In this document: one piece after another, positions 2,064 to 42,661 of the stretch
Position numbering within the stretch: the first letter of the stretch is position 1
How the letters are laid out: every line of letters starts with the position of its first letter
Assembly (NCBI GenBank): GCA_934635045.1
Contig: CAKTZA010000001.1
Coordinates: 82,640 to 146,639, forward strand
Source of the DNA: an uncultured Kiritimatiellota bacterium
Lineage (GTDB): Bacteria; Verrucomicrobiota; Kiritimatiellia; RFP12; UBA1067
Reading direction: 5' to 3'
DNA length: 64,000 nucleotides
The notes under the pieces: model-generated
Seen by the model: the letters and a program-made list of their open reading frames with translations, nothing else
What the model was told of the DNA's origin: nothing
Database searches by the model: none
Program-made: the position numbers and the translations under genes

Positions 2064-3989
<1,926 letters not shown>

Positions 3990-4092
3990 ATTCGATACCT
4001 TCTAAACGCCGGAAGCCTCCGGCGAGAGGGACGCGCGAGCCGCACGGGACTGGCGATCGACTGACCCAGGCCGCCCAGACGCCCCAACCTTC

Positions 4093-4131
4093 TGAACAAA
4101 ACGAAAACGGCGGCGAACGCGCCGCCGTTCC
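4093..4131 (-). terminator. rho-independent terminator after rpsI
   Basis: The minus strand reads ACGGCGGCG-cgtt-CGCCGCCGT followed by TTTCGTTTTGTT, just downstream of the rpsI stop at 4143. Confidence 0.75.
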
Positions 4132-4142
4132 GTTTTCCGCGA

Positions 4143-4544
4143 TTAGCGCTTCGAGAACTGGAAGCGCTTGCGAGCGCCGGGCTGACCGGGTTTCTTACGT
4201 TCCTTCATGCGGCTGTCGCGCGTCATGCAGCCGGCCTTCTTGAGCGCGGCACGCGTCGTCTCGTCGGCCGCGACAAGCGCGCGGGCGAGGCCGTGGCGGA
4301 TCGCGCCCGCCTGCCCCGAAATGCCGCCGCCCTTGGCGTAGCACACGACGTCGACCTTCTCCATGTCATAGCCGGAGATCGCGACGGGCTGCTTGAGATA
4401 GTCACGCAGGGCCTCGGACGGGATGTACTTCGCGAGATCCTCGCCGTTCACCATCCAGTTGCCCGAACCCTCGACGAGATTCACGCGGGCGGTCGCGGTC
4501 TTGCGACGGCCGGTTCCGGCGGAAATTGCCTTCTTGGTAGCCAT
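4143..4544 (-). CDS. rpsI: 30S ribosomal protein S9
   Basis: MATKKAISAGTGRRKTATARV..GGGISGQAGAIRHGLARAL..ARKRFQFSKR. The internal ATG at 4544 was chosen rather than the ORF-track start at 4577. Confidence 0.93.
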   Translation of the reverse strand: MATKKAISAGTGRRKTATARVNLVEGSGNWMVNGEDLAKYIPSEALRDYLKQPVAISGYDMEKVDVVCYAKGGGISGQAGAIRHGLARALVAADETTRAALKKAGCMTRDSRMKERKKPGQPGARKRFQFSKR

Positions 4545-4560
4545 TGTAAAGATTCCCCCC

Positions 4561-4992
4561 TTAGAGCTTGATTTCAACCGGCTTCTGCGCGGCGTGGTCG
4601 TGTTCGGCGCCCGCGAAGACCTTCACGCGCGTCATCATCTTGCGCGCGATGTTGTTCTTCGGGAGCATGCCCCAGACGGCTTCCTTGATCATGCGGTCGG
4701 GATGCTTCGCGCGCATCTCGGCGGCCGTGAAGCACTTCAGGCCGTTCCGGTAGCCGGAGTAGCGCTGATATTCCTTCTGCTCTTCCTTCTTGCCCGTGAG
4801 CTTGACGAGCGCGGCATTCGTCACGATGACGAACGCGCCCGCATCGACGGAAGGATCGAACGTCGGCAGATCCTTCGCACGGAGCTTGTTGGCGATGACG
4901 ACGGCGAGGCGGCCAAGCGGCTGGCCCTTCGCGTCGATGAGGAACCACGCGCGGTTGTCGCCCGGGTTCGGAGCACGATAGCTCTTCTGCAT
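4561..4992 (-). CDS. rplM: 50S ribosomal protein L13
   Basis: 143 aa with WFLIDAKGQPLGRLAVVIANKLRAK..VIVTNA..KEYQRYSGYRNGLK..MLPKN. Confidence 0.95.
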   Translation of the reverse strand: MQKSYRAPNPGDNRAWFLIDAKGQPLGRLAVVIANKLRAKDLPTFDPSVDAGAFVIVTNAALVKLTGKKEEQKEYQRYSGYRNGLKCFTAAEMRAKHPDRMIKEAVWGMLPKNNIARKMMTRVKVFAGAEHDHAAQKPVEIKL

Positions 4993-5097
4993 CTTTACTT
5001 TTCTCTTTCTTTTGTGCGGATTTGTGCCCTTTATCCAGGGTTTTGCCCGCCGTTTACCTGTCGCCGCCGGTTAGCCCCCGACGACGAATGAGCGCGT

Positions 5098-5106
5098 ATT
5101 ATAGCA
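5098..5106 (-). promoter_or_regulatory. extended -10 (TGCTATAAT) upstream of rplM-rpsI
   Basis: Plus-strand attatagca is the reverse complement of TGCTATAAT. It lies ~105 nt upstream of the rplM ATG, implying a long leader. Confidence 0.55.
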
Positions 5107-5175
5107 AAAACCGTCGCTTTGTGGCAAGTGGGGCACTCGCGCGGCAAAATCGCGCGCAATACCCCCGGAGAGAAG

Positions 5176-5260
5176 TGCCGGAGACGGGACTCGAACCCGT
5201 ACGTCAAATACTTGACAAGGGATTTTAAGTCCCTGGTGTCTGCCATTCCACCACTCCGGC
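5176..5260 (-). tRNA. tRNA-Leu (anticodon UAA)
   Basis: The 85-nt reverse complement folds by hand into a cloverleaf. Acceptor GCCGGAG/CTCCGGC+A; anticodon stem AGGGA/TCCCT with loop CTTAAAA; long variable arm GTCAA/TTGAC; T arm ACGGG-TTCGAGT-CCCGT. No encoded CCA. Confidence 0.9.
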
Positions 5261-5274
5261 GCAAGGTGAGCCAT

Positions 5275-5283
5275 ATTATAGCA
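5275..5283 (-). promoter_or_regulatory. extended -10 (TGCTATAAT) for tRNA-Leu
   Basis: Reverse complement of attatagca. The -10 ends 14 nt upstream of the mature tRNA 5' end at 5260. Confidence 0.6.
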
Positions 5284-5349
5284 AATTTGCGCCGCGCCTT
5301 CTCCCCCCGACCCATTGCGCCGCGCATCCGAGCGAGAAGGCGAACCGCC

Positions 5350-5379
5350 TTGCCAGCGCGCCGCGAAAGATGATATAAT
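5350..5379 (+). promoter_or_regulatory. sigma70-type promoter (TTGCCA-18-TGATATAAT)
   Basis: ttgcca at 5350-5355 and tgatataat at 5371-5379, upstream of the ATPase gene. Confidence 0.55.
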
Positions 5380-5456
5380 CCCCCTTGTTCGGAAATGCGC
5401 AGTTCCGAACGGGCCAGTTCCGAACTCAACCCACCCCCAAGGCGCATGCAAACGAA

Positions 5457-6776
5457 ATGAAATTCTTTGACCGAGAAAACGAAATCGCAAAGCTGCGGGA
5501 CATCCGCGCACGGTCGCGCGAATCCGCGACGCTGACGGTGATGACCGGGCGGCGGCGCGTCGGCAAGACCGAGCTCATCAAGCGGGCGTTTGCGGACGAG
5601 CCGTTCGTCTACCTGTTCGTCACGCGCTCGGCGGAGGCCGACCTCTGCGACGGATTCAAGAGCCGCATCGAGGCTTTCTCCGGGCGGACAATTCCCGGCC
5701 GCGTCACGAAGTTCCGCGACCTGTTCAGCCATCTGCTCGAACTCGCGCGCGAACGTCCGCTGACGGTCGTCATCGACGAGTTCCAGGACATTTTCCGCGT
5801 CAACCCGGCAATCTTCAGCGAAATGCAGCGCGAATGGGACGAACTGTCGTCGCATGCGCAGATCAACCTCGTCGTGACGGGCAGCGTCAACACGCTGATG
5901 AACAAGATCTTCAAGGAACGGAAGGAACCACTCTACGGACGCGACACCGACCGCCTGACGGTGCGCCCTTTCGGCGTGTCAGTGCTGAAGGAGATTCTCG
6001 ACTTCTACCATCCCCGGCATACGGCGGATGACCTGCTCGCGCTCTGGACGTTCACGGGCGGCGTCGCCAAGTACGTCTCGCTCCTGATGAACCGCAAGGC
6101 CTTTTCGCGGCGCAAGATGATCGACGTCCTGATCGAGGAGGATTCGTATTTCCTCGACGAGGGATGGGCTGTGCTGGTCGAGGAATTCGGAAAGGACTAC
6201 GGCACGTACTTCTCGATCCTCTCGGCCATCGCGCGCGGCAAGACGTCACGCGCGGAAATCATGAACGAAATCGCCGGAGACGTCGGCGGCTACCTGACGC
6301 GGCTCGAAGACCAGTACGGCCTCATCGCCAAGAACCAGCCGATCTTCGAGCCGACGGCCAACAAGAACTGCCGATACAGGCTGAACGACAACTTCTTCCG
6401 CTTCTGGTTCCGGTTCGTCTTCAAGTACCAGTATCTCGTCCAGGTGCGGATGTTCGACGAGTTGCGCGAACTCGTCGCGCGCGACTACGAGGTGTTTTCC
6501 GGGCTGGCGCTGGAGGGCTTCTTCCGCTCGCGCTTCGCCGAACGGCACGCCTATTCGCGGATGGGCGGCTGGTGGGATCGAAGAGGCGAGAACGAGATCG
6601 ACCTCGTCTGCGAAAACGAGTTCAAGGGAACGCTCGACTTCTACGAGGTCAAGCGCGACGCGAAACGCTTCGACCGCCGCGCGCTTGAAGCAAAGGTCGA
6701 CGCATTCTTTCACAAGAACCCCGAGAAGCGCAACCGCATCCTCTCGCTCGCCGGGCTGTCGCTGGCGGACATCTGA
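5457..6776 (+). CDS. AAA+ ATPase of the archaeal-ATPase/DUF234 type
   Basis: MKFFDRENEIAKLRDI..; Walker A (MTGRRRVGKTELI); Walker B (LTVVIDEFQDI); C-terminal ..GGWWDRRGENEIDLV..LDFYEVK typical of the DUF234 tail. Start moved to the ATG at 5457 (track gives a TTG at 5385). Confidence 0.8.
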   Translation: MKFFDRENEIAKLRDIRARSRESATLTVMTGRRRVGKTELIKRAFADEPFVYLFVTRSAEADLCDGFKSRIEAFSGRTIPGRVTKFRDLFSHLLELARERPLTVVIDEFQDIFRVNPAIFSEMQREWDELSSHAQINLVVTGSVNTLMNKIFKERKEPLYGRDTDRLTVRPFGVSVLKEILDFYHPRHTADDLLALWTFTGGVAKYVSLLMNRKAFSRRKMIDVLIEEDSYFLDEGWAVLVEEFGKDYGTYFSILSAIARGKTSRAEIMNEIAGDVGGYLTRLEDQYGLIAKNQPIFEPTANKNCRYRLNDNFFRFWFRFVFKYQYLVQVRMFDELRELVARDYEVFSGLALEGFFRSRFAERHAYSRMGGWWDRRGENEIDLVCENEFKGTLDFYEVKRDAKRFDRRALEAKVDAFFHKNPEKRNRILSLAGLSLADI

Positions 6777-6877
6777 CAAAAAGATGCATTTTTATTCATC
6801 GCGAACTCAGAAAATGATGCACTTTCTTTGCCTTGAATTATTCGAAATGATGCTATTTGACCAAATTATGATGAATA

Positions 6878-6886
6878 TGGTATAAT
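6878..6886 (+). promoter_or_regulatory. extended -10 (TGGTATAAT)
   Basis: tggtataat lies 25 nt upstream of the ATG at 6911. GGAGG is at 6901-6905. Confidence 0.5.
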
Positions 6887-6910
6887 TCAGTCCGTTAGCG
6901 GAGGGTGGCA

Positions 6911-7231
6911 ATGACACTTAAGCGAAAGTTCTATGATTTCCTTGTTTCATGGAAAAAGACCAAGCGACAGGAATGCCTTTTGGTCAATGGCGCGCGGCAG
7001 GTCGGCAAGACGTTCGTCATCGAGCAGTTTGGGCGCGAGCAGTACGAGAGCTTCATCGAGATCAACTTTGCCTTGGAGCCTGAGTTCATTCCCGTCTTTG
7101 ACGGCAGCTTGACCGTTCGGGCCATCTGCGAGGGCATTACGGCGTTGCGCGGCGACGTGAAATTCGTTCCCGGCAAGACGCTGCTGTTTCTGGACGAGAT
7201 TCAGAACCGCAACAAGCCAGCCGCACCATGA
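6911..7231 (+). pseudogene. N-terminal fragment (~106 aa) of an AAA_14/DUF4143-type ATPase
   Basis: Walker A (VNGARQVGKTFVI) and Walker B (LLFLDEIQN), then a premature stop. Family members are normally ~400 aa. The region has visibly lower GC. Confidence 0.65.
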
Positions 7232-9056: not shown

Positions 9057-10001
9057 TCAGTTCGCCTCCGCCACCAGCGGGCCCGCGAGCTCCTTGAGGA
9101 AGAACAGGCGACCGGGGATGGTCGGGATGTAGGACGAGGTGATCCAACGCGTCGGCCCGTAGCGGAGCGTCATCCAGAGGGACATGCCCTGCCACTGCAT
9201 GCCGCGGCCGAAGATGCCGTCCGCGCCGCCGATCGCGTAGTCCGCCTGGAACATGAGGCCGGGGCCCATCGTGTTCGCACGGCACGGCACGAGCGTCGTG
9301 CGCGACTTGAACGAGGTCTGCGCGTTCTGCTCGACCGTGAGCGGATGCAGCTGCACCGCGATGCGGTAGGGCTGCTTCAGCCATTCCGCGTCGGTCTTGA
9401 ACTCGGCGCCGATCGTCGGCTCCCAGAACGCGATGTGGCACATGCGGCCGATGCCGTAGACGAGGACGAGCTTCGCGCCCTCCTTCTTCAGCGCGGCGAG
9501 CTTCTTCGGATAGGTCGGCAGGTTCTTCTTCGTCGCGAAGTTGCGGTGGTCGACGGGAACCGTCAGCTTGCCGAGCGGGTTGTAGAACGCCTGCTCCATC
9601 GCGTACTGGAAGCTCGCGTCGCCGACGAGCGTGTTGCCCTTCGCGTCCGCCCACTCGTCCATGTTGAAGCACCAGACGTGCTCGCAGGAGACGTTCCACT
9701 CCTTCAGGAAGTAGACCGCCCACTTGTACATGCCCATCGGGCCGACCGGCAGGATGAACGCGATCTTCTCGCCCGCGTCCTTCGCCTTCTTGATCTCGGC
9801 GGCGATCTCGTGGCCCATCTTGACCTCGAACTCGACGAGGTCGTTGCACGGCACCGGCTCGAACTTCTTGTTCCAGAACTTCTGCGGCTTGCAGACGTCT
9901 TCCGGCTTGTTCGCGCAGCACTTGTCGATCTTCTTCATGTCCCACCCGGCGGGATAGAAGCCCTCCAAGAGGGAACCTTTCACGGTCGAAGCAAAATCCA
10001 T
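9057..10001 (-). CDS. glucosamine-6-phosphate deaminase/isomerase-like (NagB/SugarP_isomerase family) protein
   Basis: [31 protein letters not shown] resembles the NagB G-x-TP..F.lDEY core. The ATG at 10001 is preceded by AAAGGA (track start at 10148 looks spurious). Confidence 0.65.
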
Positions 10002-10037
10002 GACGGATTGTCCTTTCTTTAGTTTTTGATGACGTGA

Positions 10038-10046
10038 ATTATAGCA
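10038..10046 (-). promoter_or_regulatory. extended -10 (TGCTATAAT)
   Basis: Reverse complement of attatagca, ~37 nt upstream of the ATG at 10001. Confidence 0.55.
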
Positions 10047-10051
10047 AAACC

Positions 10052-10654
10052 TCACCAGAATTGCCATTGCCCCGTGCGCAGCACCCACAGGCCAAGGACG
10101 AGATTCGTCGTCGCGTGCGCGACAATCGCCGCGCCGAGACCGCGCCACAGGTAGAGTCCGCCGTAGATTGCGCCGGCCAGCGCCCCGACGAGCCAGCGGT
10201 CATGCTCGACGGCGAAAAGCGCGACCATCCAGCCGAAGCCCGCAAAGCCGATCAGCCACCGGCGGAAGAACAGCTCCTCGGCGACGGAGATGACGAACGC
10301 ACTCCCGACGAGCCGCACGACAATCAGCGCCGCGCTCGCCTCCGCCACGGCCGACGTGCCGCCCTGTCCGACGATGCACCACGTGCGGTACCACGGCCAG
10401 TCAACCTGCTCTGGCAGAATCCACAGGCCGAAGACGAACAGCCCGACCAACAGCCCCCACGCGAACGCCGCGCAAGACAGGCGGGCAGGGCTGGTGCCCT
10501 CGTCCCGCCACTTCCAGACGACAACCGCCGCGAGCAGAAGCGCGACGACCGCCGTGCGCACCGCATAGCCCGTCGCCGTCGCCGGCAGCACGGCCATCAG
10601 CACCATCCACGCCGCGTAGGGCGCAATCAGCCGGACGGCCTCGCGGTTCACCAC
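10052..10654 (-). CDS. CPBP (CAAX) family intramembrane metalloprotease
   Basis: Multi-TM protein with [12 protein letters not shown] (EExxxR), FAVEH and [10 protein letters not shown] motifs. The start is uncertain: GTG at 10654 chosen to avoid a 66-nt overlap with ung; the track gives GTG at 10714. Confidence 0.7.
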
Positions 10655-11328
10655 CGGATCGGTTCCTTCCCGTGCGTCACGAGGTAGTCGTTGCACGCCT
10701 TGAAGTGTCCGCACCCGAAGAAGCCCCGGAACGCGGAAAGCGGCGACGGATGGGCACAGGCGAGGACAAGGTTCTTCGACCGGTCGACGAACGCCGCCTT
10801 GCGCTGGGCGTAGGAGCCCCAGAGCAGGTAGACGAGCCCTTCGCGTTCCTCGGCGAGCTTGCGGACGACCGCGTCGGTGAACGTCTCCCAGCCACGCCCC
10901 TGATGAGACCCGGCCATCGACGAGTCACCGCCCGCGACCGTCAGCGTCGCGTTCAGGAGCAGGACGCCCTGCTCGGCCCAGTGCGTGAGGTCGCCGTCAC
11001 GCGAGAGGAAGTCGCCGCCGAACTCGTCCTGCAGCTCCTTGTAGATGTTGACGAGCGACGGCGGCAGCTGCACGCCCTTCTGCACCGAGAAGCAGAGCCC
11101 GTGCGCCTGGCGCGGATTGTGATAGGGATCCTGTCCGAGGATGACGACCTTCACCTGGTCAAAGGGCGTGCGGTCAAAGGCGTTGAAGATCAGCTTCGCC
11201 GGCGGATAGCACACGCTCCGCGCATACGCCGCGCGGACGAATTTCACGAGCTCGGCGAAGTAGGGCTTCTCGAACTCGTCCGCCAGCACGCGCTTCCACG
11301 ACTCGTCAATGCGCACGTTCATGGCCAC
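10648..11328 (-). CDS. ung: uracil-DNA glycosylase (family 1)
   Basis: VVILGQDPYH, LLLNATLTV and HPSPLSA motifs; 226 aa. Confidence 0.93.
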   Translation of the reverse strand: MAMNVRIDESWKRVLADEFEKPYFAELVKFVRAAYARSVCYPPAKLIFNAFDRTPFDQVKVVILGQDPYHNPRQAHGLCFSVQKGVQLPPSLVNIYKELQDEFGGDFLSRDGDLTHWAEQGVLLLNATLTVAGGDSSMAGSHQGRGWETFTDAVVRKLAEEREGLVYLLWGSYAQRKAAFVDRSKNLVLACAHPSPLSAFRGFFGCGHFKACNDYLVTHGKEPIRW

Positions 11329-11329
11329 A

Positions 11330-12709
11330 TCACTTCACGAACTTGTCCAGAAGGCCGAGGAAGAAGATCACGAAGATGAGAATCGGCAGCACGTAAGTGC
11401 AGTAGACGCGCACCGGCCCGGTTGGGAAGCGCAGCCCACGCCCCGTGTTCGCCTCTAACCGAAGCTTGCCCCAGCTCCAGCCGTAGTGATGGCAGCAGTA
11501 GCACGCAAAGGCCATGCTGCCCAGCGGCAGGAACAGGCTGGAGACGAGGAAGTCCTCAAGGTCGAGGACGGACGAGTTCGCGCCAAACGGATGGAACCCG
11601 CGCCAGACGCCGAACCCGAGGATGCACGGCAGGGCGAGGACGGCGAGCGCGACGCCCGCGACGAGCCCGGCCCGGCGGCGGCTCCAGCCGAAGTAGTCCA
11701 TGAGGCACGCGAGGATGTTCTCGAAGACGGCAATGACCGCCATCAGGGACGCGCCGCTCAGGAAGGCGAAGAAAAGCGTGCCCCAGAACTGCCCGGACGG
11801 CAGGCTGTTGAAGAGGCTCGGCAACGTCGCGAAGATGAGCCCGGTTCCCTGCTTCAGATCCACGCCGCAGGCAAAGCAGGCCGGGACGACGACAGCGCCG
11901 ACCGCGAGGGCGACGAACGTGGCGATGAGCCAGACGGCCAGAGCCCCGCCAAACACCTTCCGCTCCTGGCCGATGTAGCTGCCGAAGACGGACATCGCGC
12001 CGATGCCGATCGAGAGCGTGCAGAACGACTGGTTCATCGCCTCGATGAGCACCGGGATGGGGCCGATGGCCTCCACGCGCGGGTAGTCGGGAATCAGGTA
12101 GAACTTGAGGCCCGCGAAGTCGTTGAGCCGCGCGTCCAGCCGGATGCTGTGCACGGCCAGCGCGGCAATCATCACCAGCAGGCAGGGCATCAGCCACATC
12201 GCCACGCGCACCGCGCCCTTCTGCAGCCCGCACATGCCGACGAGCGTCGTGACCGCCGTCACCGCGAGCATCGCCGTCACCATGCTGCGCGGGTCGCTGC
12301 GCAGGCCGTCAAACGCCGCGCTGACGGCGGCGGCGTCAAGGCCGACAAACGCGCCGTTCGCCATCCGCACGAGATAGATGAACATCCACCCCGTGAGCGT
12401 CGTGCAGAACATCAGCAGGACGATGCTTCCGAGGAAGCCGGCGATGCCGTGCAGGCGCCAGAGCCGCCGACGGGGCGTCAGCGTCTCGTGGAGACGCGCA
12501 ATCGAGCGCTTGGCGGCGCGGCCCGTGCCGAACTCCATAAAGAGAATCGGCAGCCCGATCAGCACCAGGAAGACGAGGTGCAGGGCGACGAACCAGCCGC
12601 CGCCGTTCTGCCCGACGACAGAGGGGAATCGCCAGACATTGCCAAGGCCGACCGCGACGCCGGCGGACAGCAGGATGAAGCCGAGACGGCTCGTCAGTTT
12701 CTCTCTCAT
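11330..12709 (-). CDS. sodium-dependent transporter (SNF/NSS family)
   Basis: RLGFILLSAGVAVGLGNVWRFP near the N-terminus. 459 aa with about 11-12 TM helices. Confidence 0.88.
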   Translation of the reverse strand: MREKLTSRLGFILLSAGVAVGLGNVWRFPSVVGQNGGGWFVALHLVFLVLIGLPILFMEFGTGRAAKRSIARLHETLTPRRRLWRLHGIAGFLGSIVLLMFCTTLTGWMFIYLVRMANGAFVGLDAAAVSAAFDGLRSDPRSMVTAMLAVTAVTTLVGMCGLQKGAVRVAMWLMPCLLVMIAALAVHSIRLDARLNDFAGLKFYLIPDYPRVEAIGPIPVLIEAMNQSFCTLSIGIGAMSVFGSYIGQERKVFGGALAVWLIATFVALAVGAVVVPACFACGVDLKQGTGLIFATLPSLFNSLPSGQFWGTLFFAFLSGASLMAVIAVFENILACLMDYFGWSRRRAGLVAGVALAVLALPCILGFGVWRGFHPFGANSSVLDLEDFLVSSLFLPLGSMAFACYCCHHYGWSWGKLRLEANTGRGLRFPTGPVRVYCTYVLPILIFVIFFLGLLDKFVK

Positions 12710-20473: not shown

Positions 20474-21561
<1,088 letters not shown>

Positions 21562-21597
21562 TTTTTCCCGCAACCCTGTCAAGGTGGCCCGCGCGCG

Positions 21598-22113
21598 CTA
21601 CTTGCGGCGGAAGCGAATCGTCGAGACGCAGCCGGGCGAACGCAGGACGGCGTTCGTCGGCAGCGCCGCGCCCGTGAGCTCGACTTCCGTCACGAGCCGA
21701 CGCATCGCGGCGACCTCCGGCACGAGCGTCAGCCGCCAGCCGCCGTCCGGGAGCGCCGTCTCGCGAATCGCGAAGACGCCGTCGAACGCCGTGGTCTTCC
21801 CCGCGACGAACGCATCCGTCGCCGCCCGGATCTCCGCATAGTGCGGCAGTTCGTCCAGCGACTTCTCGCGCCGCCCGTCCTCGTCCACGAACACCATCGC
21901 GTTCGTCGTCATCGTGACGGACGACGCGAACGGCTCCCGAACCTCCCAGACAATGCCCGCACCCGCCTTGCAGCGCACGACGCCGGACGAGACGAGCGCG
22001 CGATCCGAGCCGTCGAGCCGCCGTTCCATCGTCCAGTCCGCCGTCGAGTTGAGCGCCGCCTGCAAGGCCGCGACGGCCGACACTGCCACCAAGATCGAAA
22101 CACTACTCACCAC
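21598..22113 (-). CDS. LolA-like lipoprotein-carrier-fold protein (ApeL-like)
   Basis: GTG at 22113/22110 overlaps the upstream stop. There is a hydrophobic N-terminus (SILVAVSAVAALQA), then a ~150-aa soluble domain whose position matches LolA-like genes of aryl-polyene-type clusters. The fold call is by context and length only. Confidence 0.5.
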   Translation of the reverse strand: MVSSVSILVAVSAVAALQAALNSTADWTMERRLDGSDRALVSSGVVRCKAGAGIVWEVREPFASSVTMTTNAMVFVDEDGRREKSLDELPHYAEIRAATDAFVAGKTTAFDGVFAIRETALPDGGWRLTLVPEVAAMRRLVTEVELTGAALPTNAVLRSPGCVSTIRFRRK

Positions 22114-23450
22114 ACCCCTCCCCTTCCCCGTTCCCCATTCTTTTCCACAAGTCCCGACGCCGCGCGTCCCGACGCGACGTCCAGCGAAAAGGCGAAGCGG
22201 CTCGCGCCTGCGCGCGTGACGGTGAGCGTCACGGCCTCCGCCGGGCGGACGAGCTTCTGGAACTTGAGCTTCCGATACGTCGCCGCCTCGGGGAAATCGG
22301 GAAACGCCTGCCTCGCGAAATGCCGCAGGAAGTAGAGCTGCGCGACGCCCGGCAGAATCGGGAAGCCGGGGAAGTGCCCCTGAAAGCACTCGCAGTCCGG
22401 CGGGAAGACGAGCGTCGCCATCAGCCGTTCCGCCGTCGCCGCCCAGTCGCCGACGACCGGCTCGCGGCACCACGCGGCCAACGCCGCGCGCACGTCCGCC
22501 GCCGTCGTCTTGCCGCGCGCGTCCGTCGGCAGTTCGCGGACGAAGCGGATGCGGCGCGGGAACGCCCGTTCGCCGAGACGAGGCAAAAGGTCGCGCCGCA
22601 GCTGCGCGGCAAGGGCCGTGTGCGTGCCCTGCGCCAGCGCCGCGCGCCCCGCGTCCGACAGCACCACGAGCAGACCGAGCCGCGCCACGTCGGTGCCGCA
22701 CGTCTCCGCCCGCGCCGCCGCGACAAGCGGATGCGCCTCAAACGCCACCTCGACGATGGGCAGCGAGACGAACTCCTCCAGAATCTTGACCTGCCGGTCG
22801 AGCCGTCCCAAGAGGCGGAACTGGTGCGGCGAGACAAATTCGACGGCATCGGACAGCGTGAGCGGCCGCGTCATCGCGTAGGGCGAATCGACGACGAGCG
22901 CACCCGTCGCCGCGTCGCGCGTTGCCGAGACGCCGCACTGCAGGGTAAAGGACGCGCCCTCGGACGAACGGCGCCACGCGACCGTGCCCGCCTCCGTCGA
23001 ACCGTAGATTTCGAGGGGACAGACCCCCAAGATCGCGTGCAGGGCCTTGGCCGTCGCCGGACGCAGCGCGCCGCCCGAGACGACGAGATGCGTCAGCCGT
23101 CCCTTCAGCGTCGGGAAATCGGGATGCTTCACGGCCTTTTCGAGGAAGGACGGCGTCGTGACGAACAGGACGCCGTGCATCGTCGCCGCACAGGCCTCGG
23201 ACAGCTCCTCGACGGAAATGACGACGCCGGGCCGCACAGCGCAGCCGGCGAGACGCGGCGCGCGCTGGCACCAGAGATGGCCGAGCATGTGTTCGGGACG
23301 CGCCGAGGTGACGACCAACGGACGGCTCGCCCAGATGTCGGGGAACGCCGCGACGAGCGCGCGGGCGTCTGCCGCCAGCGAGGCGTCCGTGCGCACGATT
23401 TCCTTCGGCGCGCCGGTCGTGCCGGACGACTGGAAGACGACGTCAGCCAC
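22107..23450 (-). CDS. fusion of an N-terminally minimal AMP-dependent ligase (ANL) and a FabA/FabZ-like hot-dog dehydratase
   Basis: Starts (GTG) at MADVVFQSSGTTGAPK, the ANL A3 motif. Also ..EIYGSTEAG.. (A5) and ..GRLDRQVKI.. (A8-like). The C-terminal ~100 aa carry FQGHFPGFPILPGV (hot-dog HxxxGxxxxP). Confidence 0.75.
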   Translation of the reverse strand: MADVVFQSSGTTGAPKEIVRTDASLAADARALVAAFPDIWASRPLVVTSARPEHMLGHLWCQRAPRLAGCAVRPGVVISVEELSEACAATMHGVLFVTTPSFLEKAVKHPDFPTLKGRLTHLVVSGGALRPATAKALHAILGVCPLEIYGSTEAGTVAWRRSSEGASFTLQCGVSATRDAATGALVVDSPYAMTRPLTLSDAVEFVSPHQFRLLGRLDRQVKILEEFVSLPIVEVAFEAHPLVAAARAETCGTDVARLGLLVVLSDAGRAALAQGTHTALAAQLRRDLLPRLGERAFPRRIRFVRELPTDARGKTTAADVRAALAAWCREPVVGDWAATAERLMATLVFPPDCECFQGHFPGFPILPGVAQLYFLRHFARQAFPDFPEAATYRKLKFQKLVRPAEAVTLTVTRAGASRFAFSLDVASGRAASGLVEKNGERGRGGVW

Positions 23451-23856
23451 GGCGCACCCTCCGGCGCACGAGCCATTCGCCCGCGAACATCGCCCCCATC
23501 AACAGATAGGCGAGACAGCCATTGTAGAACGCCCAGACCTCGCGGCGCGCAAACACCGTCGCGACCGTCACGGCGAGATGGGCCGACAGGAAGACGACCC
23601 ACGCGACCGTCACCTTGCGGCAGTAGGCGACGCCGCGCGCGTCCAGAACCTCGCCCATCCCGCGCGCGAAACGCTCCACCAGCGGCGTACGGAAGAGCGA
23701 AATGGCGAATGCGGCGAGGGCGACCGCGATGACAACCGCCGGATACAGCCGAAACCAGACGTTCGCCTTCAGCAGATAGAGAACCCAGACGAGCGCGACC
23801 GCACACGCGAGGCGCAGGGCCGTTTTCGCGGTTCGCCCGCCCATCGCGCGCCTCAC
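23443..23856 (-). CDS. small 4-TM membrane protein (cluster-associated)
   Basis: 137 aa with four hydrophobic helices. It overlaps both neighbours (4 nt and 8 nt). Confidence 0.6.
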   Translation of the reverse strand: MRRAMGGRTAKTALRLACAVALVWVLYLLKANVWFRLYPAVVIAVALAAFAISLFRTPLVERFARGMGEVLDARGVAYCRKVTVAWVVFLSAHLAVTVATVFARREVWAFYNGCLAYLLMGAMFAGEWLVRRRVRRG

Positions 23857-24110
23857 TTCGCCTGTTCGGCCGCGAGCTTCACGATGACGTCGGCGACGTC
23901 GCCGAGCGTGCGGATCGCCTTGAAGTCCTCGGCCTTGACCTTGAGGCCCGTCTGCTGCTGCAAGCGCACGACGAGATCGACCGCATCGATCGAATCGAGA
24001 TCCAAGTCCTCAAAAAGCTTCGCCTCGGGCACGAGCTTCGCCCGATCCAGCTCGAACTCCGAGACCAGAACGTCCGCAATCGCCGCCAGCACTTCCTCTT
24101 TCGTCTTCAT
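23853..24110 (-). CDS. acyl carrier protein
   Basis: 85 aa with the LDLDSIDAVDLVV phosphopantetheine-Ser motif. Confidence 0.85.
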   Translation of the reverse strand: MKTKEEVLAAIADVLVSEFELDRAKLVPEAKLFEDLDLDSIDAVDLVVRLQQQTGLKVKAEDFKAIRTLGDVADVIVKLAAEQAK

Positions 24111-24115
24111 CCTCG

Positions 24116-24394
24116 TCAGTCCTCCAACGTTTCGCCCAAGTTCGCCGCGATGAAGTTCGCGAGCGACGCAATCGACTTGAAATGAACCTTGTTCTCCGCC
24201 GCATTCGCCTTGAACTTCACCTGAAACTTCTTGCGCAGCGCCGCACCGATCTCCAGGGCGTCGATCGAGTCAAGCCCGACGCCCTCGCCGAACAGCGGTG
24301 CTTCCGCCGGCAAGTCCGCCGCCGTGAGGCCGTCGACCTCCACGCTCGAAAGAATCACCTGACGAATCTCCTCTTCCAAATCCGCTCTTTTCAT
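24116..24394 (-). CDS. acyl carrier protein (second, tandem)
   Basis: 92 aa with the VGLDSIDALEIGAAL motif. Confidence 0.85.
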   Translation of the reverse strand: MKRADLEEEIRQVILSSVEVDGLTAADLPAEAPLFGEGVGLDSIDALEIGAALRKKFQVKFKANAAENKVHFKSIASLANFIAANLGETLED

Positions 24395-24401
24395 GGCGCG
24401 T

Positions 24402-24416
24402 ATTATATCATATAAT
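24402..24416. promoter_or_regulatory. back-to-back divergent -10 boxes in a 31-bp intergenic region
   Basis: The minus strand has TGATATAAT (24402-24410), 7 nt from the ACP ATG at 24394. The plus strand has TATAAT (24411-24416), 9 nt from the GT2 ATG at 24426. Confidence 0.5.
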
Positions 24417-24425
24417 ATTCTGCCT

Positions 24426-25118
24426 ATGCCGAACCAGATTCTTGTCCTGCCGGCCTATGAGCCGAGCCCCCAATTGCCGCAGCTCATGCGCGCGCTTTCG
24501 GACGCCTTTGCCGCCGTTGTCGTCGTGGACGACGGGTCGCGGCGCACCGCCGACGTCTTCGCCGAGACCGCCGCCCTGCCAGGCGTCCGACTCCTCCGCC
24601 ATGCGGCGAATCGCGGCAAGGGCGCCGCGCTCAAGACCGCGTTTGCCGACGTCCTCCGCGCCTTCCCGGACGCGGCAGGCGTCGTCACGGCCGACGCGGA
24701 CGGCCAGCATCTGCCGGAGGACATCCGCCGCGTCGCCGCCGCGACGGACGCGCATCCGGATCGCGTGACGCTCGGCGTGCGGTCGTTCGGCGGACGCGAC
24801 GTGCCCTTCCGCAGCCGGCTCGGCAACCTCTGGACGTGCGGCGAATTCTTCCTGCTCACGGGCACGTGGATCCGCGACACGCAGACGGGGCTGCGCGGCA
24901 TTCCGCGCGCGCTGCTGCCGCGCTTCGCCGCGCTCGCGGGCGACCGCTACGACTACGAGTCGCGCATGCTCGTCACGGCGACGAAGCTGCCACAACCGCC
25001 CGTGCAGATCCCGATCACGACCGTCTACGAAAGCGGCAACGCCACGAGCCACTACCGTCCGCTCGCCGACACGCTCAGCACACAGGCGGCGCTCGTCCGC
25101 GCGGCGCTCTTTGGATGA
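24426..25118 (+). CDS. family 2 glycosyltransferase (short, ~230 aa)
   Basis: ILVLPAYEPSPQL..VVVVDDGS..ANRGKGAAL..TADADGQH (DxD-like). Confidence 0.8.
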   Translation: MPNQILVLPAYEPSPQLPQLMRALSDAFAAVVVVDDGSRRTADVFAETAALPGVRLLRHAANRGKGAALKTAFADVLRAFPDAAGVVTADADGQHLPEDIRRVAAATDAHPDRVTLGVRSFGGRDVPFRSRLGNLWTCGEFFLLTGTWIRDTQTGLRGIPRALLPRFAALAGDRYDYESRMLVTATKLPQPPVQIPITTVYESGNATSHYRPLADTLSTQAALVRAALFG

Positions 25119-25231: not shown

Positions 25232-25308
25232 GGGGTTGTGGCGCAATTGGTTAGCGCACTGGACTGTCGATCCGGGGGTTGCGGGTTCGAGCCCCGTCGA
25301 CCCCGCCA
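25232..25308 (+). tRNA. tRNA-Asp (anticodon GUC)
   Basis: Acceptor GGGGTTG/CGACCCC. Anticodon stem CTGGA/TCCGG with loop CTGTCGA. T arm GCGGG-TTCGAGC-CCCGT. Encoded GCCA end. Confidence 0.9.
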
Positions 25309-25329: not shown

Positions 25330-25403
25330 TGCCTCGTGGTGTAATGGTAGCACCGCAGATTCTGATTCTGCTTGTTGGGGTTCGAGTCCCTGCGAGGCAA
25401 CCA
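25330..25403 (+). tRNA. tRNA-Gln (anticodon CUG)
   Basis: Acceptor TGCCTCG/CGAGGCA. Anticodon stem GCAGA/TCTGC with loop TTCTGAT. T loop GGTTCGAGTCC. Encoded ACCA end. Confidence 0.88.
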
Positions 25404-32867: not shown

Positions 32868-33302
32868 TCAATCGACAGATTCCCTGATATCCATCGGATT
32901 GAATATCCGCAGCATCGGATAAAGCGTCTTGTAATCGCTCTCGTTGCGGGTGATGAGGCCGCCTTTCGCAAGCGCATATGCGCCAATCATCACATCGGCG
33001 ATTGGCCGTTTGACGATTTCTCCGGCACGCTTTCGCAGGATGTGCTCATTCCACGCCCGATGCGCCTGAAGGACGATGCTTCTGCTCCCCGAAAACTCGC
33101 AATCAACTCCCAACTCAAGGAGGAATTCATCTTGCAACTCTGCGTCGCCATTGAACGACGGCGACAGCTCCACGTATGTTAACGGCGAAATCAGAAGCCC
33201 CTCTTCGCGCTTCAAATCGAGAGCGGTCGCCGAAGCCTCCGCGAAGTCGCGGTCGCCGCGTGCCACATCAATAAAAACGCACGTATCAACGACCCAGTTC
33301 AA
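32868..33302 (-). CDS. vapC: PIN-domain toxin VapC
   Basis: MNWVVDTCVFIDV..; conserved acidic residues (D6, E.., D..); 144 aa; 4-bp overlap with the upstream antitoxin. Confidence 0.85.
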   Translation of the reverse strand: MNWVVDTCVFIDVARGDRDFAEASATALDLKREEGLLISPLTYVELSPSFNGDAELQDEFLLELGVDCEFSGSRSIVLQAHRAWNEHILRKRAGEIVKRPIADVMIGAYALAKGGLITRNESDYKTLYPMLRIFNPMDIRESVD

Positions 33303-33586
33303 TCCGATTCCCCTTCGCGGAGTTCGTGCATGATGTCGGCCGTAGAGCGGTATTCAGGGTGGAAGCGCCGACAATACCCAATCAAATCATGCGCGGATTT
33401 CGGCTTCGCCGTGGGAGTCTCTGCCTGGTCGAGTTTGACGAGGATGACCTGATAGAGGCCACTCTCCGGGATCGAAAGGGACAACGAACCGCGATGCCCC
33501 ATGACGTTTTCAGACCACACGCGGCCGGACGAGCCGACATTGGCGACGGTTCGCATCCAGTCCTTCTTCTCCATCAGCCTTGGCAT
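33299..33586 (-). CDS. putative VapB-type antitoxin
   Basis: 95 aa, upstream of vapC and overlapping it. C-terminal ..STADIMHELREGESD resembles antitoxin tails. AAGGAGG SD. Confidence 0.6.
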   Translation of the reverse strand: MPRLMEKKDWMRTVANVGSSGRVWSENVMGHRGSLSLSIPESGLYQVILVKLDQAETPTAKPKSAHDLIGYCRRFHPEYRSTADIMHELREGESD

Positions 33587-41136: not shown

Positions 41137-41919
41137 TCACCGCGTCTCGTCCAGCGGCGCGGGGCGGCGCTCGCGGAACAGGAGCGAGGGATTCCCCTTC
41201 AGCTCACCGGCGAGATCCTTGAGCGAGGACGCCGCGTCCGACAGGTTCTCCGCGACTTTCTCGATGTCGCCCTGGCAGGTCTCCATCATCGTCTGAACCG
41301 TCAGCATCGTCTTGGACATCGACGAGACGGACGCATTGACGTTGCTCCAGACCGAGGCGAGATCCATCGTGTTGATCTGGTTCATGACGCGCGTCGCCGC
41401 ATCGGAGAAGTTGTCCAGCAGGGAGATCTTCTGCGGCACGAACGGGTGCCGGGGCTTCCATGCGAACGTCTCCGCCGGCGCGACGCCCCTGTTGAGATTG
41501 CACTCGATGCGGGAGAGCCCCGTGATGCCGCTCGCCGTGACGGACGCCCGGAGGCCGCGTTCCTTCACGAGATAGGCGACGGCGTCCGCCGCCGCAATGC
41601 CCTCGTCCTCGAAATAGCCGAGCTTTTTCGGATTGAGCGCCATCAGGATGTAGATGCGCAGGTTGTCCGCGCCCTTCGCCTCGTACTTGTTGCCGACGAA
41701 GTCGATCTCGCGCACCTCGCCGATCTTCACGCCTCGGAAGTTGACGGAACTGCCGACGGACAGGCCGCTCACCTCGCGGTCATAGTAGGTCTCGACGAAG
41801 ATCTCGTTTCGATGGCCCCGCAGTCCGCCAAGATAGATGAGCGTGACGGCCGTCGCCACCGTCGCGGCGAGGATTGCGAAACCGATGCGGGCGTAGCTCG
41901 CATGATTGTCATTTGCCAT
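41137..41919 (-). CDS. mlaD: MCE/MlaD-family substrate-binding protein
   Basis: N-terminal TM anchor, then ..VSGLSVGSSVNFRGVKIGEVREI.. (MCE core). C-terminal coiled region. Confidence 0.8.
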   Translation of the reverse strand: MANDNHASYARIGFAILAATVATAVTLIYLGGLRGHRNEIFVETYYDREVSGLSVGSSVNFRGVKIGEVREIDFVGNKYEAKGADNLRIYILMALNPKKLGYFEDEGIAAADAVAYLVKERGLRASVTASGITGLSRIECNLNRGVAPAETFAWKPRHPFVPQKISLLDNFSDAATRVMNQINTMDLASVWSNVNASVSSMSKTMLTVQTMMETCQGDIEKVAENLSDAASSLKDLAGELKGNPSLLFRERRPAPLDETR

Positions 41920-42661
41920 TGTCTTCCCCCCTGTTGAAGAACTTGCGGACGAACGGGTCGTCCGACGTGTTCCGAAGCTCGCGCGGCGAACCGAGCGCGA
42001 TCATCGCCTGACGGGCCTTGTCGAACATCGCCGCGCGGTCGCCGATCTTGAAGACGCTCGGCAGCTCGTGCGTGACGACGACGAACGTCATACCCTTCTC
42101 CGCGCGCAGCCTCAGGATAAGGTCGTCAAGCGCGGCGGACGTGATCGGATCCAGCCCCGCACTCGGCTCGTCAAGGAAGACGACCTCGGGGTCGAGCGCC
42201 ATCGCCCGCGCGATCGCGACGCGCTTGCACATGCCGCCCGAGATCTCGCTCGGCATCTTGTCCGCCGCGTCCTCAAGCTCCACGTCCCGCAACCGTTCCA
42301 GCGCGCGCGTCCGCCGCGCCGTCTTCGAGAGACCCGAAAACTCCTCCAACGGCAACAGCACGTTCTCCAGGCAGGTCATCGAGCCGAAGAGGGCGCCCGA
42401 CTGGTACATGACGCCGATCTTGCGGCACAGCTCCGCCCGCGTCCGCACGCTCCATTCGAGCCCCGCGACGGTCAGCCGTCCCCCAAGGATGGGGTTGAGG
42501 CCCGTCATGTGCTTCATGACCGTCGACTTGCCGCAGCCGGACCCGCCGAGCAGAATGAAGATCTCGCCACGCGCAACCTCAAACGAGATGTCGCGCAGGA
42601 TCACCGCGCCGGGATAGCCGGCGTCGACATGCTCCAAGACGACAATGGGCTCACGTTTCAT
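41909..42661 (-). CDS. mlaF: MlaF-like ABC transporter ATP-binding protein
   Basis: Walker A GGSGCGKST, signature ISGGMCKRVAIARA, Walker B VVFLDEPSAGLD. 11-nt overlap with mlaD. Confidence 0.85.
   Translation of the reverse strand: MKREPIVVLEHVDAGYPGAVILRDISFEVARGEIFILLGGSGCGKSTVMKHMTGLNPILGGRLTVAGLEWSVRTRAELCRKIGVMYQSGALFGSMTCLENVLLPLEEFSGLSKTARRTRALERLRDVELEDAADKMPSEISGGMCKRVAIARAMALDPEVVFLDEPSAGLDPITSAALDDLILRLRAEKGMTFVVVTHELPSVFKIGDRAAMFDKARQAMIALGSPRELRNTSDDPFVRKFFNRGEDNGK

Follow-up and report, generated by a model that had tools for sequence, protein, structure and literature searches.

In a 64,000-nucleotide stretch of DNA from a human-gut Kiritimatiellae bacterium (GenBank assembly GCA_934635045.1, contig CAKTZA010000001.1, positions 82,640 to 146,639; GC content, 63.8%), which we call the window, a group of six genes at 21598 to 25118 resembles part of the aryl polyene (ape) gene clusters. 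Reading of the open reading frames (ORFs), together with Pfam and NCBIfam scans, showed that all six are intact and lie with gap on one side and two tRNA genes on the other. Five are tightly packed on the minus strand and encode, in the order of transcription, two acyl carrier proteins (ACPs), a small membrane protein, a 447-amino-acid (aa) fusion of a ligase with a hot-dog domain, and a LolA-like protein. The sixth, for a family 2 glycosyltransferase (GT2), is transcribed divergently on the plus strand. Each ORF has the same length as its own homologues. An earlier reading made from the DNA letters (the original prediction) had assigned these genes to an ape-type module; the genes are intact at the positions it gave, and the sequence motifs it quoted are all present, including DSID in both ACPs. 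Its family assignment also stood, as each protein matches its counterpart in Escherichia coli CFT073, ApeL marginally, in the order E-F-G-H-I...L.

The two tandem ACPs score above the curated thresholds of both ape ACP families, PRK09184 and PRK05350. ACP1, an ApeE-type starter ACP of 92 aa (24116 to 24394, minus strand), carries its Ser in GLDSIDALE, matches Pfam PP-binding (E=9e-8) and NCBIfam PRK09184 (73.8 bits; cutoff, 70), and is 49% identical to CFT073 ApeE over 76 aa (BLASTP, E=9e-25). ACP2, of the ApeF type (85 aa; 23853 to 24110, minus strand; Ser in DLDSIDAVD), matches PP-binding with an E value of 5e-12 and NCBIfam PRK05350 with 104.4 bits (cutoff, 65), and shares 46% identity over 82 aa with CFT073 ApeF (BLASTP). 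The next gene encodes the small membrane protein (23443 to 23856, minus strand), which has 137 aa from a GTG start or 133 aa from the ATG at 23844; the overlap with the ACP2 gene described in the original prediction (23853/23856) exists only with the GTG start. This protein found no match in the Pfam and NCBIfam scans, and in BLASTP its counterpart was a C-terminal stretch of 112 aa in ApeG, which has 193 aa (40% identity to CFT073 residues 78 to 189, E=1e-21). The end of its gene and the start of the ligase gene share 8 bp. ApeG and the ligase are found on one chain in P0122, P0141, P0172, P0234, P0261, and L096; four representative clusters have an ApeG-ApeH-ApeI fusion, and in P0122 and L096 ApeG is joined to the short form of the ligase-hot-dog protein described below. 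These fusions, with which the 8-bp gene overlap here agrees, argue for ApeG as a predicted physical partner of the ligase. Their recurrence speaks for membrane anchoring and not for the proposed role of ApeG as an energy-supplying pyrophosphatase.

The 447-aa fusion (22107 to 23450, minus strand) starts with MADVVFQSSGTTGAPK and combines an ApeH-type ligase with an ApeI-type hot-dog domain. The ligase part, residues 1 to ~325 (22476 to 23450, minus strand), is a truncated ApeH-type acyl-ACP synthetase that starts 8 residues before the P-loop. Pfam AMP-binding matches it with 55.3 bits (cutoff, 29.9) over only positions 170 to 335 of the 384-position profile, and BLASTP aligns it to residues 139 to 445 of CFT073 ApeH with 29% identity. 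Both alignments bear out the earlier claim that the protein begins at the A3 motif of the ANL (acyl-CoA synthetase/nonribosomal peptide synthetase/luciferase) enzymes and has no N-terminal part; the full ANL N-terminal domain with the A1/A2 region, which occupies ~130 to 170 residues before A3, is not present in the fusion. ANL motifs A3, A5, A7, A8, and A10 are all there (SSGTTGAPK, YGSTEAG, D201, GRLDRQVK, and GK314, respectively), and K16, E153, D201, R216, K222, and K314 are invariant in short and long forms alike in two alignments. An AlphaFold2 model of the fusion is confident, with a mean predicted local distance difference test score (pLDDT) of 93.1 and a predicted template modeling score (pTM) of 0.87. 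Foldseek searches with this model gave aryl-acid and other ANL ligases as the best matches (E values down to 3e-17), and PDB 4GS5 was matched too. A family of short ligases, DVU_1553, was rejected as the identity of the protein from its NCBIfam score of 26.5 bits against a cutoff of 300 and from its context.

The hot-dog domain, residues ~330 to 437 (22140 to 22463, minus strand; GHFPGFPILPGV), matches the ApeI-like family PF22818 with 29.4 bits (cutoff, 28.5) and CFT073 ApeI with 31% identity (BLASTP). Its sequence matches in the PDB are 3esi and 6qsr, and the ApeI-like chain of the latter carries the name "AMP-dependent synthetase and ligase." Residues 356 to 369 of the fusion read FQGHFPGFPILPGV, in which His359 is invariant. 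FabZ has its catalytic Glu 14 residues after this His; this position varies in the family, with Tyr in the window protein and Asp in E. coli ApeI. FabZ models score only 20.7 and 19.6 bits on the fusion against cutoffs of 113 and 155, which places the domain outside the FabZ/FabA type.

GT2 (24426 to 25118, plus strand) has 230 aa, or 241 aa if translation begins at another ATG, at 24393, and is the counterpart of the first 231 aa of ApeJ. It matches Pfam Glycos_transf_2 with an E value of 7e-14, and its top NCBIfam match, below the cutoff, is the polyprenyl-phospho-GalNAc synthase PpgS. BLASTP aligns it to residues 1 to 231 of CFT073 ApeJ (28% identity, E=3e-16), and the second half of ApeJ has no match, so that compared with CFT073 ApeJ only the GT2 half is present. 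The LolA_3-like, ApeL-type protein (21598 to 22113, minus strand) has a hydrophobic N terminus that, read by eye, is probably a signal peptide. It scores 31.4 bits with PF19574 (cutoff, 23), has a weak NCBIfam match to flexirubin LolA2, and is marginally similar to CFT073 ApeL (BLASTP, E=0.03). In related loci the LolA-like gene holds the ApeL position after H-I.

Compared with the ape clusters of E. coli CFT073 and Xenorhabdus doucetiae (ApeA to ApeR), the window shares ApeE, ApeF, ApeG, ApeH, ApeI, ApeL, and the GT2 half of ApeJ, and has in common with them the tandem specialized ACPs and an AasS-like starter-loading ligase. The E-F-G-H-I...L order of CFT073 is kept, whereas the GT2 gene of the window is divergent and lies upstream of ACP1, not after ApeI. 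The window locally lacks ApeB, ApeC, ApeD, ApeK, ApeM, ApeN, ApeO, ApeP, ApeQ, and ApeR. Its ApeH is joined to ApeI and is without the first ~138 residues, and its ApeG is without ~55 N-terminal residues.

The original prediction had regarded both the ligase-dehydratase fusion and the minimal adenylase as arrangements not previously described. For the fusion this proved wrong. In Acinetobacter baumannii, ApeH carries ApeI at its C terminus, and this fusion protein pairs with ApeP in a heterodimer with one active site and acts as acyl-ACP synthetase and dehydratase (PMC8041823); its ligase part has been termed "ApeH-Nt," and ApeH-type enzymes have been described as AasS-like (PMC8358021). The window protein has the same starter-loading ligase followed by the ApeI hot-dog on one polypeptide, but it is ~130 residues shorter at the N terminus, and no ApeP gene is nearby. 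An HMMER scan of 1.84 billion representative sequences returned 4,368 homologues of the fusion in two size classes, one of ~437 aa aligning end to end and one of ~565 aa in which query residues 4 to 435 fall on residues ~130 to 560. Most of the ~565-aa representatives are H-I fusions with the same domain order as the window protein, and nearly all of the ~55 proteobacterial loci sampled have the P-loop and the GHF hot-dog motif in one open frame. Further fusions extend the series. P0249, a 766-aa protein from the representative library, has ApeH, ApeI, and ApeP on one chain, with both dehydratase halves joined to the ligase, and in P0127 the short fusion is joined to a LolA-like protein; the first of these links ApeI with ApeP, and the second links the LolA-like protein with the same process.

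The missing N-terminal part of the ligase has a different standing. The closest homologues (54 to 97% identity) are all 436 to 461 aa long and come from Kiritimatiellae. In the window, the reading frame of the fusion is closed by a stop 16 codons before its start, and all Kiritimatiellia loci of the clade to which the window belongs have such an in-frame stop, at 10 to 47 codons before the P-loop. We searched the six frames of the window for an N-terminal ligase remnant with a hidden Markov model (HMM) of 38 long-form N termini and found none (best E=2.2). With this result and the upstream in-frame stop, an N-terminal exon separated by a frameshift or lying upstream, which the original prediction had named as a possible refutation, can be ruled out. 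There are also structural precedents, so that the claim that a minimal adenylase is unprecedented did not hold for ANL enzymes at large. In PDB 4GS5 from Dyadobacter fermentans (358 aa) and the MenE-type PRK07824 (362 aa), the P-loop is ~40 to 50 residues from the N terminus and the rest of the ANL fold with the C-terminal subdomain is kept. Residues 3 to 321 of the fusion align to residues 40 to 351 of 4GS5, and its alignment to PRK07824 begins at model position 46. Unlike these two, the window protein has its P-loop still nearer to the start (8 residues) and has an added hot-dog domain. The conserved stops, the lack of a remnant, the invariant catalytic residues, the confident model, and the matches to short ANL enzymes together indicate, as far as sequence and predicted structure can tell, that the minimal adenylase is a genuine conserved lineage variant. 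To our knowledge, this minimal form has not been described for ApeH.

Short fusions with ~30% identity to the window protein also occur in gut Gastranaerophilales/Melainabacteria, around positions 10001 to 11200 of loci L029, L030, L031, L034, and L035. L029 and L030 have otherwise complete ape-like clusters, and part of the set was detected in L031, L034, and L035; no ketosynthase (KS), ketoreductase (KR), ApeP, or ACP matches were found in L031 and L034. In these loci, those with complete clusters included, an in-frame stop lies 15 to 39 codons upstream of the P-loop. The N-terminal truncation either is old or arose twice.

The module is not an assembly artifact, as an identical module with the same arrangement and neighbors was found on at least nine independently assembled metagenome contigs from several studies. 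The 447-aa protein also occurs in Hadza gut assemblies at NCBI and ENA, on contigs as long as 200 kb. Against a related lineage (L010), the ratio of nonsynonymous to synonymous substitution rates (dN/dS) was 0.06 to 0.24 across all five genes compared, hot-dog domain included (ACP1, 0.12; ACP2, 0.06; membrane protein, 0.17; hot-dog domain, 0.19; GT2, which is in the same divergent position in L010, 0.22). Judged by these ratios, the module is under purifying selection.

We used all 18 CFT073 Ape proteins and the exporter and KS of a related locus (L006) as tblastn queries against the 64-kb window (E<1e-4) and found no other ape-type genes: no KS (ApeO/ApeR), chain length factor (CLF; ApeC), KR (ApeQ), ApeP, thioesterase, acyltransferase, or RND/MMPL-type ApeM exporter. 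Because tblastn matched nothing else, the local lack of KS, KR, ApeP, thioesterase, acyltransferase, and exporter is real, in line with the absence of KS, KR, and exporter in the original prediction. Thus, of the dehydratase pair ApeI and ApeP and the ketoreductase ApeQ, only the ApeI-like domain is encoded in the window. The missing genes are not simply adjacent in another assembly; KS, KR, and exporter genes are absent from the ~3 kb visible to either side of the module in an independent assembly, and the window itself is free of them for ~21 kb in one direction and 39 kb in the other.

We then compared the module with loci in related genomes, writing H'I for the short fusion. In a metagenome-assembled genome (MAG), JAZSLQ01, locus L012 has the same short fusion with 58% identity and an E-F-G-H'I-L string like that of the window, but unlike the window it has no adjacent GT2. 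After L it continues with the partner genes: a fusion of the exporter with the C-terminal part of ApeJ, an ApeO-like KS, an ApeP-like dehydratase, an ApeQ-like KR, an ApeR-like KS, a CLF, and an ApeD-like acyltransferase. The gene orders among the loci are graded: E-F-G-H'I-L-exporter-KS is found in L006, L017, L018, and L020; E-F-G-H'I-L alone is found in L004, L013, L016, and the window; and L010 has J divergent from E-F-G-H'I. The ACP-ACP-ApeG-H'I core is present in all intact Kiritimatiellia loci sampled except L017, which is without an ApeG-like match. Within a single assembly, MAG JAFPUH01, the core lies on contig 22 (L013) and the exporter and KS lie on contig 24 (L100), that is, as a split cluster. 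KS/CLF-type genes were found in the relatives at L012 and L100, the KS is also solitary at other loci, and the genomic surroundings of the module differ between close relatives.

The exporter fusion of L012 is a protein of 1,001 aa (3161 to 6166) with an ApeM-like exporter at residues ~236 to 731 and a domain similar to ApeJ residues 339 to 544 at ~816 to 996; fragments of this family have been named "LPLAT superfamily acyltransferase" and "exporter" by JGI. This domain layout suggests that ApeJ has been split and its acyl-transfer half fused to the exporter.

From these data, we consider it probable that the window module is an ape-type sub-cluster for starter loading, carriage, and handling, the other genes of the pathway most likely being elsewhere on the chromosome. 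Homology to and colinearity with the Ape proteins, kept catalytic residues, a conserved truncation, purifying selection, and relatives with both contiguous and split versions all support this reading. The locus is a modest variant of a known outer-membrane lipid pathway. The original prediction had left open whether the module is a self-sufficient unit or part of a split cluster; the comparative data favor the split cluster, and the self-sufficient unit gained no positive evidence.

By analogy with known ape systems, we infer all of the biochemical steps, the starter, the product, and the partner genes in this genome. The ~325 N-terminal residues of the 447-aa protein, as a shortened ApeH-type acyl-ACP synthetase, would adenylate a carboxylic acid starter, aromatic by analogy, and pass it directly onto the ApeE-type ACP1, as ApeH loads 4-hydroxybenzoate on ApeE with no CoA intermediate (PMC8253772; PMC12624758). 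The ApeF-type ACP2 may hold malonyl extender units or a second chain. The ApeI-type hot-dog would be one half of a heterodimeric dehydratase, with its ApeP partner, the KS with CLF, and the KR acting in trans. The ApeG-like protein, translationally coupled to the ligase, would keep the loading enzyme at the membrane, and the GT2, the N-terminal half of ApeJ, would make a sugar-phosphate head group. The lipids of aryl polyene clusters have a glycerol-phosphate-GalNAc backbone (bioRxiv 10.1101/2020.12.19.423268), and the resemblance of the window GT2 to GalNAc-phosphate-type transferases agrees with this. The LolA-like protein and an exporter from another locus would jointly carry the finished lipid toward the outer membrane. 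Yellow color and ape genes have been reported only for a distant isolate, Pontiella desulfatans F1 (PMC7356697).

Several findings weigh against a split pathway in this organism. None of the putative partner genes (KS, CLF, KR, ApeP, exporter, and acyltransferase) lies in the window, and L012 is the only Kiritimatiellia locus with the complete contiguous set. Among the matches listed in a search for KS homologues, all had at least 67% identity and none was linked to the window lineage. A solitary exporter (P0328), found on Hadza and other gut contigs, correlates with the window in tetranucleotide frequency (r=0.975) and has a GC content of 67% against 64%; its putative link to the clade is drawn only from this composition and from shared sample sources. 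In addition, the closest GTDB representative, L011, has a relic of the module at 9469 to 11444, between rlmN and asd, with 96% nucleotide identity to the window (span compared, 21590 to 25106). Two deletions, corresponding to window positions 23390 to 24567 and 22081 to 22477, remove part of the GT2 gene, both ACPs, ApeG, the P-loop, and the hot-dog domain. Since the closest sampled relative has this deleted relic, pathway loss in this clade is possible. At least 23 contigs of independent assemblies, which come from several studies and were made with several assemblers, have the relic (L102 to L109 among them), and it is either a paralogue in the same genome or a sister-strain allele.

The window copy could accordingly be read as a decaying remnant, intact but functionless in a gut lineage that is losing the pathway; the 96% identical sister-lineage copy with its two deletions and different genomic context, the missing partner genes, and the variable context of the module among close relatives fit such a history. 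However, six intact ORFs of homologue-like lengths that keep all catalytic residues, the low dN/dS values against the L010 lineage, and the recovery of identical sequence from several studies speak against a remnant, and we regard decay as improbable. It also seems unlikely that the six genes form a self-sufficient minimal module, which would load a short acyl or aryl acid on a private ACP, take any elongation from housekeeping type II fatty acid synthesis (FAS II), link the product to the sugar-phosphate lipid that the GT2 produces, and deliver it outward with the LolA-like protein, without a KS, KR, or exporter of its own. The hot-dog domain belongs to the ApeI type, for which action has been described only in a heterodimer with ApeP (PMC8041823), and has Tyr in place of the catalytic Glu of FabZ; bare-core loci proved to be halves of a split cluster in MAG JAFPUH01; and the acyl-transfer half of ApeJ and any acyltransferase are missing, so that the acyl group could not leave the ACP. 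What such a module has in its favor is purifying selection in two lineages, the window and L010, neither with an ape partner close by (none within 10 kb in L010), the presence of the core in all but one (L017) of the intact Kiritimatiellia loci sampled, and the capacity, in principle, of AasS-like ApeH-type enzymes to salvage exogenous acids (PMC8358021). In a related and quite doubtful proposal, the core, the GT2, and the LolA-like protein would work with no dedicated KS, a membrane-docked synthetase would capture exogenous acids such as dietary phenolics and feed them via the private ACP into an envelope glycolipid, and ApeG would replace the N-terminal subdomain of the ligase.

We also considered ordinary genes of FAS II or lipid A synthesis, since the ACP, hot-dog, and AMP-ligase folds are common to primary lipid metabolism and the module sits among the housekeeping genes gap, pal, tatABC, and mutY. 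The equivalog models of NCBIfam score far below their cutoffs: the ACPs reach 20.9 and 40.2 bits with the AcpP model TIGR00517 (cutoff, 70.45), with the FabZ scores as low as noted above. The top matches are ape-specific families and CFT073 Ape proteins, and the module has no Lpx or Fab genes as neighbors. That the proteins are ordinary enzymes of these pathways, which the original prediction had named as a possible refutation, is extremely unlikely, and we reject this identity.

On one flank of the module is gap (20474 to 21490, minus strand), and on the opposite flank are tRNA-Asp (25232 to 25308) and tRNA-Gln (25330 to 25403). The divergent spacer (24395 to 24425) is AT rich and has the reported length of 31 bp if the GT2 start is the ATG at 24426, as in 230-aa homologues. 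It contains a promoter-like TTTTCA-17-TATAAT, a consensus match only, with TATAAT at 24411 to 24416 just upstream of this ATG. In the interval from gap to the LolA-like gene, at 21553 to 21582 on the minus strand, is a sigma-70 site that matches the consensus at 12 of 12 positions (TTGACA-18-TATAAT). This site, presumably the promoter of gap, shows where the operon of the module ends downstream. No terminator-like site was found 3' of the LolA-like gene. The remaining ORFs of the window were examined by reading their translations by eye and by tblastn with the Ape queries, with Pfam run on selected ORFs. MlaD- and MlaF-like ORFs at 41137 to 42661, ~17 kb from the module, were recognized by eye, with a tblastn match for the ATPase. 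Genes for MlaE/MlaF/MlaD lipid transport are directly upstream of the ACPs in L004 (6424 to 9046) and a few kilobases from the exporter and KS in L100 (17467 to 19739). Also by eye, two small overlapping ORFs of 144 and 95 aa at 32868 to 33586 (minus strand) are like a PIN-domain toxin and antitoxin. At 5385 to 7231 (plus strand), an ATPase-like ORF of 463 aa precedes one of 108 aa that, again by eye, resembles the N-terminal fragment of another ATPase and may be a truncated duplicate.

The ape clusters are regarded as being among the most widespread families of bacterial gene clusters. Little is understood of the late steps of the pathway or of what ApeG, ApeI, and ApeL do in it. Kiritimatiellae have the pathway genes dispersed between housekeeping genes, where cluster-based miners will probably miss or mis-score them; the arylpolyene rule of antiSMASH depends on ketosynthase models. 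Noteworthy in this group are the conserved minimal form of ApeH, the repeated fusion of ApeG to the ligase, and the dispersal of the genes. The present locus does not overturn the current understanding of ape biosynthesis. It refines the annotation and offers for biochemistry a compact enzyme from a family in which the ligase of two gut lineages appears to do without its entire first subdomain.

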